A stretch of 64,000 nt of DNA, taken from contig CAIQHG010000018.1 of assembly GCA_903871545.1 (NCBI GenBank), forward strand, positions 5,163 to 69,162. The letters run 5' to 3'. Numbering within the stretch: the first letter of the stretch is position 1; the number at the start of each line of letters is the position of its first letter. Under the pieces are notes generated by a model. The model worked only from the letters and a program-made list of their open reading frames with translations. It had not been told where the DNA came from and made no database searches. The position numbers and the translations under genes are program-made. Of this stretch, positions 39,944 through 43,833 are shown piece after piece. Source of the DNA: an uncultured Burkholderiales bacterium (lineage in GTDB: Bacteria > Pseudomonadota > Gammaproteobacteria > Burkholderiales > Burkholderiaceae_C).

Positions 39944-40672
39944 GTGAATAAAGTGAAATCAAATCAAAAGTCTATCTCCCAATTAGCGATTACATTGATC
40001 TGCTTTGGATCCTTAGGGTCTGCGAATGCTCAAGATCAGGCGCGCGTACTTTCAAGCACTCCGGTCGTAAAACAGTTCTACGTTCCCCAGCAAGTATGCG
40101 GCACTTCGCAAGTCGCGGTCGCTGAGCCCAAAACAGGGGCAGGAGTCGTTGTGGGTGCCGTGGCTGGTGGATTAATTGGAAATACGCTAGGCTCGGGTGC
40201 TGGGCAGGCTGCGGCAACCGCTATAGGTGCAATATCGGGTGCAATAGTGGGTAATAACTTAGAAGCCCCTAACGTGGATTTACAAAACGTTGCGACCTGT
40301 TCAACACAAAATACGTTACAAAGCGCCACTATTTACCAGGTTGTTTACGAATATGCAGGCAAACAATACAACATTGAGATGCAATCAGACCCCGGCAAGT
40401 TCGTCACTCTTCAACTTAACCCAGTTGCACAAGGCCAATTACAACCATCTGGAACCGCGCCTCCCCCAGGATCAGCTCCATCTGTTAGTTACGCCTCTGG
40501 AGCTCCAACTCTAGCAACCACCATCGTTACACCCGCACCTGCCTACACTGTTTCAACCTATCGGTATCCAAGTGCCTATCCTTACGGCTATGGATATGGA
40601 TACGGCTATGTTTACCCCCCCGTTGCAATTGGTTTTGGCTATTACGGCGGATGTTGTGGACGTCGCCGCTAG
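39944..40672 (+). CDS. Glycine-zipper 2TM domain exported protein
   Basis: Signal peptide, GVVVGAVAGGLIGNTLG.G.G.AAATAIGAISGAIVG zipper, and a Tyr/Gly/Pro-rich tail. Confidence 0.85.
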   Translation: MNKVKSNQKSISQLAITLICFGSLGSANAQDQARVLSSTPVVKQFYVPQQVCGTSQVAVAEPKTGAGVVVGAVAGGLIGNTLGSGAGQAAATAIGAISGAIVGNNLEAPNVDLQNVATCSTQNTLQSATIYQVVYEYAGKQYNIEMQSDPGKFVTLQLNPVAQGQLQPSGTAPPPGSAPSVSYASGAPTLATTIVTPAPAYTVSTYRYPSAYPYGYGYGYGYVYPPVAIGFGYYGGCCGRRR

Positions 40673-40711: not shown

Positions 40712-40750
40712 CCCGTATCAGAACTGCTTTTTGATACGGGTGCTACTTTT
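40712..40750 (+). terminator. Probable intrinsic terminator
   Basis: CCCGTATCA-N11-TGATACGGG followed by tgctactttt. Confidence 0.6.
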
Positions 40751-40868
40751 TAGGATTACTAATTTAAACTTTATAATACAAAAGTTCTATTCCTGTGAGA
40801 TTTGCTCTTTAAAAGCCGCTACTAAATGATGTTAAAGTGAGATACTAAGTTCGCAATTTAGATCGTTT

Positions 40869-42347
40869 TTGCTCAGTCATTACGAAACTTTAATCAACAT
40901 CATGGCTTTACCCGGCAAGAAACAACGAAACAAGATAAGCGGCGGACCTGGCGTTATTGGTTGGATGCGAGGATTTTTTAGCACTCCGCAGAAAGCTGCC
41001 AATTTAATGTCTTTTGAAATTGAGGAGCTGTCCCGCAAGTTCAAAATCACTGATGAAGCAAAACGTTTGGGTGCGATGGGATTGCCTGCCTTTCATGCAA
41101 AAGACCTCACAAGTGTTGAGTCTCAATTGGTACGGCATTTAAACGTAGAGCGTGATCAAATCTTAATTAATGCCCAAAACGAAATAGCCGAGCTGGACCG
41201 GGAATTAACAGAGAAAGAATATGAATACCAAAGCTATGTCACTCAAAGTTTGAGCGCTGAGTTTGAGCGCAAGGCCAGACAAATTATGGATAGCCAAGGA
41301 GCTTGGCTAAAAAAATTAGCTTCTAATGCAATCTCCAATATAAAAGAGCTTGAGATTTTTAGAGAAGAAAACGATCTAAAAAGACAAGCCAATTACCCTG
41401 AGAAAGCTCAAATATTTTTTCAATACTCCCTTCTCCTTGTACTAATTGTTATTGAGGGTGCTTTGAACTCCAGTTTTTTCTCTGAGGGATTAAGCACGGG
41501 ACTAATAGGCGGCTTTGTATTTGCCGCCTCACTGGCTTTGATCAACATAGCGAGTTGTTTTTTTCTGGGAAAAGTAGGATTGCGTTGGATAAACCATAGG
41601 AAGTCTTATGGGAAGACGATTGGATTTTTTAGTTTATTTGTTGCGATTTTATTTTTGAGTGGCATGGCTCTATCTATTGCACATATAAGGGAGGCAATGG
41701 CGCTTGGGATTGAGAGCCCAACCCGAGTTGCTTGGGAGATGATGCAAAGTGGCTTATGGAACTTCAAAGATATAACTTCCTGGTTTTTAATCATCCTCAC
41801 ACTTGGTTTTGGAATTGCAGCTTTAGTAGACGGCGTGTATATTGACGACATTTACCCTGGCTACGGTAATATATTTAGGCGTACTGAGTCTGCAAAAGAG
41901 GAGTTTGAATCCGAGTATGAGGACATACGTATCGAGCTTGAGGCGTTAAAACAAGAAAAATTAGATTTTGTGGATCAACAAGTCATCACTTGTAATGAGC
42001 TGTTGTTCTCAGTACAAAAATTAATGGATTTAAAACTATCCATTGTTAAAAAATATCAAGACAGACTTAACGACACCGAGGTGGTACTTTACGCAACTAT
42101 TAGAAAATTTAGATTTGAAAATGAAATCGTGAGAGAGGACGGTTTAATCCCTGCCTACTTTAATACGATGCCTTCTTTAAACCCCATAGCGTTGCCGAAA
42201 ATCGAGCAAGTCCGTGGCGTAACTTTAATCGCTAAGCTAAGCGAGTTAATTAAAAATCATGAAGTAACGATCTCTGCTCAAAGGGAAGAGGTTTACCAAA
42301 TTTTTGAGAAATTTGTATCACAACTAAACCATCTAAGGTACTACTAA
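40869..42347 (+). CDS. Hypothetical 4-TM protein with large N- and C-terminal coiled-coil domains
   Basis: Heptad-rich helical ends, four hydrophobic segments, D.YPGYG after TM4. Start may be ATG 40902. Confidence 0.8.
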   Translation: MLSHYETLINIMALPGKKQRNKISGGPGVIGWMRGFFSTPQKAANLMSFEIEELSRKFKITDEAKRLGAMGLPAFHAKDLTSVESQLVRHLNVERDQILINAQNEIAELDRELTEKEYEYQSYVTQSLSAEFERKARQIMDSQGAWLKKLASNAISNIKELEIFREENDLKRQANYPEKAQIFFQYSLLLVLIVIEGALNSSFFSEGLSTGLIGGFVFAASLALINIASCFFLGKVGLRWINHRKSYGKTIGFFSLFVAILFLSGMALSIAHIREAMALGIESPTRVAWEMMQSGLWNFKDITSWFLIILTLGFGIAALVDGVYIDDIYPGYGNIFRRTESAKEEFESEYEDIRIELEALKQEKLDFVDQQVITCNELLFSVQKLMDLKLSIVKKYQDRLNDTEVVLYATIRKFRFENEIVREDGLIPAYFNTMPSLNPIALPKIEQVRGVTLIAKLSELIKNHEVTISAQREEVYQIFEKFVSQLNHLRYY

Positions 42348-42354
42348 AACGAGT

Positions 42355-43158
42355 ATGAGACGCAAAAGTAAGATAGCTCAAAAAAGAGCGCTCACACACA
42401 CCTTACTAGGAGGAATGTTTATTTTGGCATTGGCCGCGGTGATTGGTGCTGTGATATGGTGGCAAGGTACACGCCCCAAACCTTTAAATGCAACCACGTT
42501 GTGCCCCGCTGAGGGCCCCCTTGGGCATCAAGTCTTATTAGTGGATCGGACTGACTCGTTTAATTTAGCTCAAAAAGCTGCGTTTGATAACTTAGCCAAA
42601 GAGTTGGTTGAGAACCTACCCGTAGGCTACATGTTGTCTGTTTTCGTTTTGGGGCACGATTTCAAATCCGAAACAAAACCCCTTATTGAGCTTTGTAACC
42701 CAGGTGATGGACGAGATAAAAGTGAATTAACCCAAAATATAAAAATTCTTAAGAATCAGTACACAAATGGTTTTATTCAGCCGCTTGAGAAAGTGACAAC
42801 AGATTTGCTGAATGCAGACGCCGCCAAAGAGTCCCCCATCTTAGAGATGATTCAGCTTGTTTACCTAAACTCTATCCAATCCCGTACAAAGGCTGGTCCT
42901 GTTACTCTTTTTATATTATCGGATTTAATGCAGTTTAGCCCAGCACTAGACATGTACAAATCGACTCCTAACTTTCAGCGATACGAAACCACTTACGCCG
43001 CCAAGAAACTGTGGGTTGATTTAGAAGGTGTCGATGTAAATGTCATTTTGCTGAACAATAATATTAAAAATCAAAGCCCTGCCTTTTTGGACTTTTGGAA
43101 TGACTACTTCAAGCGCGCGCGCGTCAAATCTTTGAACGTACAGAGCCTTCCTGGTTAA
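42355..43158 (+). CDS. Membrane-anchored vWA-like protein
   Basis: Basic N-terminus, one TM, LLVDRTDSF (MIDAS-like DxTxS), SPILEMI and ILSDLMQ. Confidence 0.7.
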   Translation: MRRKSKIAQKRALTHTLLGGMFILALAAVIGAVIWWQGTRPKPLNATTLCPAEGPLGHQVLLVDRTDSFNLAQKAAFDNLAKELVENLPVGYMLSVFVLGHDFKSETKPLIELCNPGDGRDKSELTQNIKILKNQYTNGFIQPLEKVTTDLLNADAAKESPILEMIQLVYLNSIQSRTKAGPVTLFILSDLMQFSPALDMYKSTPNFQRYETTYAAKKLWVDLEGVDVNVILLNNNIKNQSPAFLDFWNDYFKRARVKSLNVQSLPG

Positions 43159-43221
43159 ATCTTTTATAACAATCCTCGCGTAGCGGCGACACGCCAATCT
43201 GATTTTGAAAGGAATCTTTAA

Positions 43222-43833
43222 ATGCATCCAGTCCACTACCACGTGATTAGTGTCGATTTGGCTAAAATAAGGCCCACCCAAGTATCCATTGGATATGAGG
43301 AGGTGATTAAAAAAAGATCAGAATGGCGTAAGTTATCTAAAAAAGATAGAAAAGCCTTACTGAGCAGCCATTGGTTTCCAAGCATTATTGGCCCAAAGGG
43401 GGAGCACTTCATCGTAGACCACCACCATCTGGGTCTGGCTTTGCATTTGGAGGAACAAAGCACTGTTAAATTGACTGTTCTAAAAGATTTTTCAATGCTT
43501 AACAGTGAAACTTTTTGGCGGGTCATGGAGTTTCATCAATGGGTACACCCCTATGATGAGAGTGGAAATAGAGTCCCTTTTTCAAAAATACCAGTCAACG
43601 TTTCTCAACTTCGAGATGATCCTTACCGCAGCTTGGCAGGACTTGCTAGAGATCACGGCGCTTTTGCCAAAGATCTAACCCCCTACAGTGAATTTTTGTG
43701 GGCTGATTTTTTTAGAACAAGAATACAAAAGAAGCTTCTCAAAAAATGGGACCTGGCGATAGAAAAGGCTCTTTTGTGTGCAAAAACTCCGCAGGCCAGT
43801 TATTTACCTGGCTGGACGCAATCTAAGAGCTAA
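43222..43833 (+). CDS. ParB/Srx-fold protein (ParBc_2-like), no HTH
   Basis: IRPTQVSIG, IGPKGEHFIVDHHHL, DDPYRSLAG and FSEF/YSEF-type WADFFR motifs. Confidence 0.8.
   Translation: MHPVHYHVISVDLAKIRPTQVSIGYEEVIKKRSEWRKLSKKDRKALLSSHWFPSIIGPKGEHFIVDHHHLGLALHLEEQSTVKLTVLKDFSMLNSETFWRVMEFHQWVHPYDESGNRVPFSKIPVNVSQLRDDPYRSLAGLARDHGAFAKDLTPYSEFLWADFFRTRIQKKLLKKWDLAIEKALLCAKTPQASYLPGWTQSKS

Follow-up and report, generated by a model that had tools for sequence, protein, structure and literature searches.

An unannotated gene pair for a four-helix membrane protein and an anchored vWA-like protein: a possible sensor and transducer core with exchangeable partners

The gene pair and its locus

The window studied here, i.e., the whole stretch of DNA that was analysed, comprises 64,000 nucleotides (nt) of contig CAIQHG010000018.1 from an uncultured Burkholderiales bacterium (assembly GCA_903871545.1). 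It carries two open reading frames (ORFs) on the same strand, with 7 nt between them, which are referred to below as g1 and g2. Gene g1 (40902..42347, + strand) encodes a predicted inner-membrane protein of 481 amino acids with an N-terminal cytoplasmic helical hairpin, four transmembrane (TM) helices and, at the C-terminus, a long cytoplasmic hairpin of coiled coils, and g2 (42355..43158, + strand), which starts 7 nt past the g1 stop, encodes a predicted type II (signal-anchor) membrane protein of 267 amino acids with a periplasmic vWA-like domain. The g1 ORF as listed spans 40869-42347, with a TTG start and 492 amino acids. Since at least ten g1 homologues are exactly 481 amino acids long and the alignment begins at the ATG at 40902 (MALPGKK...), this ATG is probably the start rather than the TTG at 40869. 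The two-gene arrangement, topology and motifs are as the initial annotation of this DNA described them, and the ORFs, the 7-nt gap, the AlphaFold2 models and the alignments all agree on this point. That annotation recognised no named family, and indeed searches of Pfam, NCBIfam, PADLOC and PDB profiles and of structures with Foldseek give no characterised family or system for the pair.

The pair sits in an insertion of ~2.5 kb (approximately 40741..43221, + strand), located between the terminator (40712-40740) of a gene for a Gly-zipper lipoprotein and the ATG of a gene for a ParBc_2 protein. The insertion is apparent because three congeners show empty glmM-GlyZip-ParBc_2-ppk sites, where 60-120 nt separate the lipoprotein gene from the ParBc_2 gene; two of these three congeners have their own g1-g2 elsewhere, together with genes for a J-domain and a Zn-ribbon protein (see below). 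The fraction of G and C is 0.397 in g1 and 0.428 in g2, compared with 0.452 for the genome and 0.47-0.50 for the flanks. A relative of 90% identity carries the same insertion, and comparison with it yields ratios of nonsynonymous to synonymous substitution rates (dN/dS) of 0.053 for g1 and 0.066 for g2. The synonymous divergence (dS) of both genes is ~0.96 and equals that of the flanking ParBc_2 and ppk genes; the insertion therefore predates the split from this relative. Both g1 and g2 are under strong purifying selection at their present site.

The AlphaFold2 model of the g1 protein (predicted local distance difference test score, pLDDT, 84.7) is all-helical. A disordered N-terminus leads into a helical hairpin (residues 71-157), after which come the four TM helices (168-194, 201-231, 235-267, and 291-312), a helix of 90 residues (321-410) and a terminal one (437-480). 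According to the positive-inside rule, both termini and the loop between TM2 and TM3 would be cytoplasmic, and the loop of ~30 residues between TM3 and TM4 periplasmic. The four-TM bundle (residues 168-312; 41403..41837, + strand) is delimited by the secondary structure of the model and by conservation, which for both proteins was assessed in 67 sequences. Polar residues within it are at least 98% conserved and most are invariant, i.e., E185 and N189 in TM1, N215 in TM2, and H261 and R263 at the periplasmic end of TM3. Directly after the bundle lies a conserved juxtamembrane cytoplasmic motif, D315-D316-x-Y318-P319-G320-Y321-G322 (41844..41867, + strand), of which D316, Y318, P319, and Y321 are at least 98% conserved. 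Positions K378, F403, R404, N407, and P417 of the C-terminal arm likewise reach at least 98% and are mostly invariant. The g1 family is large, uniform and unannotated: a profile search of 1.84 billion representatives recovered 3258 clusters (50% identity) at E<=1e-3, of which 1704 also pass E<=1e-30, and nearly all members are ~475-490 amino acids long. No match above noise was obtained for g1 in Pfam, NCBIfam or PADLOC, a profile search of the PDB returned coiled-coil noise only, and Foldseek found nothing for the model at E<=1e-3 in the PDB and BFVD.

The g2 protein has a strongly basic N-terminus and a single TM helix at residues ~17-39 (42403..42471, + strand; delimited on the AlphaFold2 model), followed by an alpha/beta domain. 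Column-by-column composition revealed no conserved His, Asp or Glu in this helix. Its AlphaFold2 model (pLDDT 82.8, predicted TM-score 0.75) matches PDB structures in Foldseek, and the top matches are all vWA domains (E 2e-5 to 6e-4, probability 1.0, target-normalised TM-score up to 0.57), among them the Sec23/24 trunk, CMG2/ANTXR, integrin I-domains, ITIH1, ArnAB, and Rpn10. The vWA fold proposed in the initial annotation is thus well supported. Against Pfam, NCBIfam and PADLOC, g2 gave nothing above noise, and a profile search of the PDB aligned the stretch around the putative metal-binding loop with the integrin alpha-M I-domain at a non-significant E of 0.28. This loop, D64-R-T66-D67-S68 (42544..42558, + strand), follows strand beta-1 and resembles a metal ion-dependent adhesion site (MIDAS), which has the form D-x-S-x-S plus a Thr and an Asp that follows beta-4. 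D64 and T66 fall at the D-x-S part, and S160 (42832-42834) and D190 (42922-42924, both + strand), further candidate metal ligands indicated by sequence conservation, fall at the Thr and Asp positions. Two Cys residues, C50 (42502-42504) and C114 (42694-42696, + strand), are invariant. In both clades of the tree discussed below, C50, C114, D64, T66, S160, and D190 are 98-100% conserved, and all but T66 are invariant; position 68 is Ser in the window and Pro in most relatives. The MIDAS-like residues noted earlier are all present in the window, and four of the five ligand positions (D64, T66, S160, and D190) are conserved, which makes this a candidate metal site. We regard g2 as a divergent vWA domain with a non-canonical metal site that is possibly still functional.

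The periplasmic location assumed for the g2 domain in the initial annotation is plausible in view of its basic N-terminus, its signal anchor and the invariant pair of Cys, which fits a periplasmic disulfide. The label 'trans-envelope' used there is not borne out. With the end of the TM helix at residue ~39 and the start of the first vWA strand at residue 58, the domain begins ~15 residues past the helix and thus rests on the inner membrane instead of bridging the periplasm. The label 'effector' lacks support as well, as neither g1 nor g2 has a recognisable catalytic or toxic domain.

Relatives of the pair and their partner genes

Linkage between the two genes is strict and, like their purifying selection, well beyond chance expectation. 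Gene g1 lies directly 5' of g2 in all 16 loci first looked at and in 69 of 70 loci on contigs from one genome per species, the 70 being those where the ORF caller recovered g2, which confirms a co-inherited module. The pair occurs in 2 of 201 genomes sampled across the order and in 22 of 60 genomes of the genus, which consists of freshwater Comamonadaceae (metagenome-assembled genomes (MAGs) of the Limnohabitans type). It was found in at least six genomic contexts, at identities ranging from 39% to 75% in the distribution survey, and three genomes hold two divergent copies. Farther afield, the pair was found in Azoarcus, Acidovorax, Ralstonia, Pseudomonas, Pasteurellaceae, Methylotuvimicrobium, Thiomicrospira, Desulfobacterota, and one alphaproteobacterium. 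No relative of g2 was found in the viral contigs of IMG/VR; the pair is, therefore, not evidently phage-borne. A midpoint-rooted maximum-likelihood tree of concatenated g1 and g2 from 67 loci separates a clade in which the pair is accompanied by genes for a motor-like complex (the motor clade) from one monophyletic clade in which it is not (the motor-less clade), and the latter consists of the freshwater Comamonadaceae.

Across Proteobacteria and Desulfobacterota the pair forms the first half of a four-gene cassette, g1-g2-g3-g4. The window proteins are 24-33% identical to their motor-clade counterparts, align over their full length and keep the invariant residues, and the gene order and tight spacing are the same. 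In the g3 protein, the N-terminal TM helices contain an invariant F-A-D-x-C-Y-Y-x-G-F-x-F-T, with another invariant Thr 32 residues further along, and a coiled-coil tail of ~400 residues comes after this TM core. PF01618 (MotA_ExbB) matches the TM core in 21 of 31 g3 proteins, in all cases below threshold (the best at 22.1 bits vs. a cut-off of 22.9), and PADLOC models of ZorA match g3 down to 4e-9, chiefly on the tail. The g4 protein begins with a TM helix, F-Q-L-S-L-T-E-I-A-F, that contains an invariant Glu; behind it lie a coiled coil and a C-terminal domain in which two Cys are invariant. The N-terminus of g4 shows a weak match (~1e-3) to ZorB. Profile searches of the PDB for g3 and g4 were dominated by coiled-coil matches. 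We also considered that g1 and g3, and g2 and g4, might be paralogues; this was rejected, as hhalign gave a probability below 1% for both pairs. About one third of the motor-clade cassettes are joined by a staphylococcal-type nuclease (SNase) with a signal peptide. Among the genes within three positions of these cassettes on either side are DarT/NADAR, restriction-modification systems of types I, II, and III, Vsr, Mrr, DUF4011 helicases, Hhe, Mokosh, LmuA, PycTM-type effectors, PD-T4-1, AbiO, UmuCD, and resolvases.

Three motor-clade loci stand in clear defence islands. In Azoarcus sp. KH32C (AP012304.1; locus L026) and in Ramlibacter (loci L027 and L028), the cassette lies beside DarT-NADAR (DarTG), a giant helicase of the kinase-DUF4011-AAA_11/12-MTES_1575 type and an EcoRII/Vsr/Dcm/Mrr cluster, and several unannotated genes for proteins of 1000-1300 amino acids occur there. 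One locus within the motor clade, from a Burkholderiales MAG (L081), has no g3 or g4 3' of g1-g2 and may represent an independent second loss of the motor.

The freshwater Comamonadaceae clade that holds the window is one that has lost the putative motor. It splits into two subclades, one bare and the other with genes for a J-domain and a Zn-ribbon protein; in the g1 plus g2 tree the window falls inside the second. Most members of the motor-less clade carry both of these genes, which follow the pair or precede it divergently. The J-domain protein (150-230 amino acids) matches PF00226 at 1e-16 with its HPD motif intact; the Zn-ribbon protein (~260 amino acids) ends in a double CxxC Zn ribbon and belongs to a family restricted to the freshwater Comamonadaceae lineage. 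Among the 60 genomes of the genus, 16 have g2 and the Zn-ribbon protein, 4 the Zn-ribbon protein alone, 6 g2 alone, and 34 neither; these genomes are kin, so that the counts are descriptive only. Five of the six genomes with g2 only fall in the bare subclade.

Profiles of g3 and g4 found neither gene in the whole genome of the window. The J-domain and Zn-ribbon genes are present at the start of another contig (C54:25-1464; the J-domain gene at C54:25-660 and the Zn-ribbon gene at C54:685-1464), and their products are 56% and 67% identical, respectively, to the cassette proteins of a congener. Longer scaffolds of the same species show a glutathione S-transferase (GST) gene 5' of these two genes and no g1-g2 there, while in the orthologous locus of congeners the GST gene is followed further on by g1-g2 and then by the J-domain and Zn-ribbon genes. 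Since the J-domain and Zn-ribbon genes lie on C54, away from g1-g2, all four components have been kept and are split over two loci. The initial annotation spoke of a two-gene module; this is accurate insofar as g1 and g2 form a strict pair, but the relatives have four components, the other two being either MotA/MotB-like proteins or the J-domain and Zn-ribbon proteins, which here are encoded on a different contig. A second, unassembled copy of g1-g2 5' of the C54 genes was considered and rejected, because tblastn of the whole assembly detected none and the GST gene lies there instead.

Two types of small exported proteins accompany the pair in the motor-less clade. The bare subclade often has one of them (L075-L093, e.g., L076:8078-8452), with its gene 47-130 nt 5' of g1 on the same strand; the product has a signal peptide, a mature part of ~105 amino acids, two conserved Cys, and W-x-L-S-D/E-F-N-C motifs, and might serve the vWA head as a periplasmic partner or ligand. 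A different exported two-Cys protein, of 141-147 amino acids, is encoded 13-56 nt 3' of g2 in loci L060, L064, L066, L067, and L069 (e.g., L067:10863-11288), where the J-domain and Zn-ribbon genes diverge from g1-g2.

Possible function and rival explanations

We tentatively propose that the pair is the core, consisting of a sensor for a periplasmic ligand and a transducer, of a system for envelope surveillance or defence whose partner modules can be exchanged, a reading that is plausible but that we hold with clear reservations. In such a system g1 and g2 would form one inner-membrane complex, in which the vWA/MIDAS-like head of g2 would lie against the membrane on its periplasmic side and probably dock on the conserved TM3-TM4 loop of g1. 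A periplasmic ligand or a perturbation of the envelope (e.g., phage entry) would be sensed at this head, and the 4-TM bundle of g1, with its buried Glu, Asn, and Asn, could pass the signal to the two long cytoplasmic coiled-coil hairpins, the arms with which g1 might engage its partner module. In most phyla this partner would be a divergent, ion-driven motor of the ZorAB/MotAB type with a long cytoplasmic tail, often together with the exported nuclease. In the freshwater Comamonadaceae its place would be taken by a cytoplasmic J-domain protein, i.e., a recruiter of DnaK, and the Zn-ribbon protein, to which g1 may signal.

The patchy multi-copy distribution, horizontal transfer, the defence islands of the motor clade and a resemblance to Zorya suggest a defence role. 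Zorya is the closest characterised system; its types I-III combine a ZorA5B2 motor with ZorC/D, ZorE or ZorF/G (PMC11946911, PMC11890865). As in Zorya, the motor-clade relatives share an operon with genes for a MotA/ExbB-like protein, which bears a long cytoplasmic coiled-coil tail, and a MotB-like single-TM protein, they occur in defence islands, and the predicted product is an inner-membrane machine with long cytoplasmic helices. The differences are substantial. No ZorA- or ZorB-like gene lies beside the window pair, and, as noted above, the g3 and g4 profiles find none in the genome. Neither g1 nor g2 matches a model of ZorC-G, the sole PADLOC match being PglZ at a chance-level E of 0.01. 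In the relatives, the g4 TM helix has a Glu instead of an Asp, an OmpA-type peptidoglycan-binding domain is lacking, and the associated nuclease is exported rather than cytoplasmic. Because the ZorAB motor is absent and g1 and g2 match no Zor protein, the window pair is not a member of Zorya. With the four-gene, stator-like cassette of the motor clade, the window shares the adjacent homologues for a 4-TM coiled-coil and a TM-vWA protein in the same order, but here g2 is followed by ParBc_2 instead of MotA/ExbB-like and MotB-like genes, and the clade has no nuclease. Our literature search, which covered Zorya type IV, Zorya-like and J-domain defence systems, yielded no report on the cassette or on its J-domain-linked variant.

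Several observations weigh against the proposed sensor and transducer core. No effector domain is encoded at the window locus, the MIDAS of g2 is non-canonical (D-x-T-x-S/P), and no model of the Pfam VWA clan matches g2 even at E<=1. The description of g3 and g4 as a divergent MotAB/ZorAB-like motor draws on sub-threshold matches, and what can be said of the function of the family derives from sequences and models. The bare subclade (five genomes of the genus) has g1-g2 and neither the motor nor the J-domain and Zn-ribbon genes, and two genomes (89-100% complete) possess the J-domain and Zn-ribbon genes but lack g1-g2, so that this partnership is not obligatory. Finally, the motor-less clade lies outside defence islands, with TRAP transporters, aminotransferases and oxidoreductases as neighbours and few defence matches. 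The suggestion of an anti-phage function in the initial annotation accordingly has two sides: it is plausible by extension from the motor clade with its defence-gene neighbourhoods, but the window's own clade is found among metabolic genes.

These metabolic and housekeeping neighbourhoods are what would be expected if the pair belonged to a non-defence module for envelope homeostasis or proteostasis, in which g1-g2 reports or repairs the state of the periplasm or membrane, the J-domain partner recruits DnaK to the membrane, comparable to the way in which DjlA-type membrane J-proteins act on envelope stress pathways, and the freshwater clade has been exapted from defence. The stable position of the insertion between housekeeping genes, with dS equal to that of its flanks, and the intact HPD motif of the J-domain partner fit this explanation too. 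Yet an occurrence in only 22 of the 60 genus genomes and 2 of the 201 order genomes, at many insertion sites and sometimes in two divergent copies, would be unusual for a homeostasis function, and the sister clade with the motor resides in defence islands; overall we consider this explanation rather unlikely. A link of a J-domain protein and Hsp70 to a membrane or immune sensor is in itself a known theme, both from DjlA-type membrane J-proteins and from the DnaJ-dependent phage sensing by bNACHT25 (PMC12169576). The J-protein here differs in that it is small and soluble, has its own C-terminal domain and is encoded beside g1-g2 in the relatives; a NACHT/STAND protein is lacking, and its interaction with the pair is suggested by gene linkage and co-occurrence only.

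Another possibility is that g1 itself conducts ions or permeabilises the membrane, as an abortive-infection-type effector or channel that is gated by the vWA head of g2 and needs no other partner. The polar residues E185, N189, and N215 inside TM1 and TM2 would suit such a role, and so would the persistence of the bare subclade with no motor, J-domain or Zn-ribbon genes anywhere in the genome. It seems quite unlikely, since g1 bears no likeness to a channel or transporter in Pfam, in the PDB or by Foldseek, and the large cytoplasmic coiled coils, which are conserved, point to contacts with other proteins more than to a simple pore. The succession of a TM helix and a periplasmic vWA domain also raises the question of whether g2 is a motor-driven force transducer that in this organism borrows the housekeeping TolQR/ExbBD motors for adhesion, gliding or work on the outer membrane. 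Inner-membrane-tethered vWA 'force transducers' have been described beside tolQR-like genes (Mol Biol Evol 2025; PMC12204202), and the motor-clade pair is syntenic with MotA/ExbB-like and MotB-like genes, i.e., with genes resembling those of 5:2 motors. In contrast to those proteins, the g2 TM helix has no SHLS motif with its His, no transpore-helix Asp and no other conserved acidic residue, a long disordered or proline-rich linker is lacking given the short distance between helix and domain, and g2 is always paired with its obligate 4-TM partner g1, absent from that paper, and not directly with motor genes. With no motor gene adjacent in the window and g3 and g4 not found in the genome, we judge this explanation very unlikely. 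The loss of the motor genes, and the absence of the J-domain and Zn-ribbon genes from the window locus, could finally be taken to mean that the pair is a decaying, functionless remnant of the four-gene cassette. The ORFs are intact, however, and retain all family-invariant residues, the motor-less clade is old and diverse (39-90% identity), and the dN/dS of 0.05-0.07 over a dS of ~0.96 effectively excludes a remnant.

Returning to the sensor and transducer core, a bolder version of it would hold that the pair is the autonomous core of a new class of envelope surveillance in which the module for power or output was swapped in evolution, a proton-driven rotary motor of the ZorAB type with a periplasmic nuclease in most lineages against an ATP-driven Hsp70 machine, recruited through a dedicated J-domain protein with a Zn-ribbon partner, in the freshwater Comamonadaceae. 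We regard this as doubtful. If true, the same membrane sensor could be powered by a chaperone cycle in place of an ion-driven stator, and, if the system is defensive, it would provide a case of partner-module exchange in bacterial immunity. What the window adds is the autonomy of the non-motor half and the exchange of its partner module: the half consisting of the 4-TM and vWA proteins persists alone under strong purifying selection, and a J-domain co-chaperone module repeatedly occupies the place of the motor. The pair thereby makes it possible to test what the motor contributes to the complete cassette and what g1-g2 might sense. The g1 cassette is among the commoner unannotated membrane operons, and g1 and g2 can be labelled as a defined family with defined partner genes.

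Flanking genes and further observations

The Gly-zipper gene 5' of the insertion (39944-40672, + strand) encodes an outer-membrane-type lipoprotein (PF05433; similar to PRK11280, NF008437, 1e-22) and is conserved beside glmM in congeners. Its C-terminal tail is unusual, being rich in P, A, S, and T and then reading YPYGYGYGYGYVYPP...GGCCGRRR. On the 3' side, between the insertion and ppk, lies the gene for ParBc_2 (43222-43833, + strand), a 'putative ParB-like nuclease' (PF08857, 1.6e-57). This gene is patchy, occurring in 12 of the 60 genus genomes, yet it belongs to the ancestral glmM-ppk locus. ParBc_2 was considered as a third component of the module and rejected, as it is part of this ancestral locus and present without the pair in three congeners; the lipoprotein gene was rejected as a part of the module for the same reason. 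No terminator was detected between g2 and ParBc_2, and read-through transcription from the pair is therefore possible.

On contig C54, a gene on the opposite strand (C54:1642-2844, - strand; locus L135) is convergent to the J-domain and Zn-ribbon pair and encodes a low-complexity protein of 400 amino acids rich in Ser, Asn, Gln, and Thr. It has no Pfam match on record and is kept at this place in the scaffolds of the same species and in congeners (388-408 amino acids). In one congener (L035:6476-9287, - strand) the genes after a bare pair encode a ChlI/ChlD pair resembling Mg-chelatase (AAA+ with a vWA domain at the C-terminus), an association that is probably coincidental.

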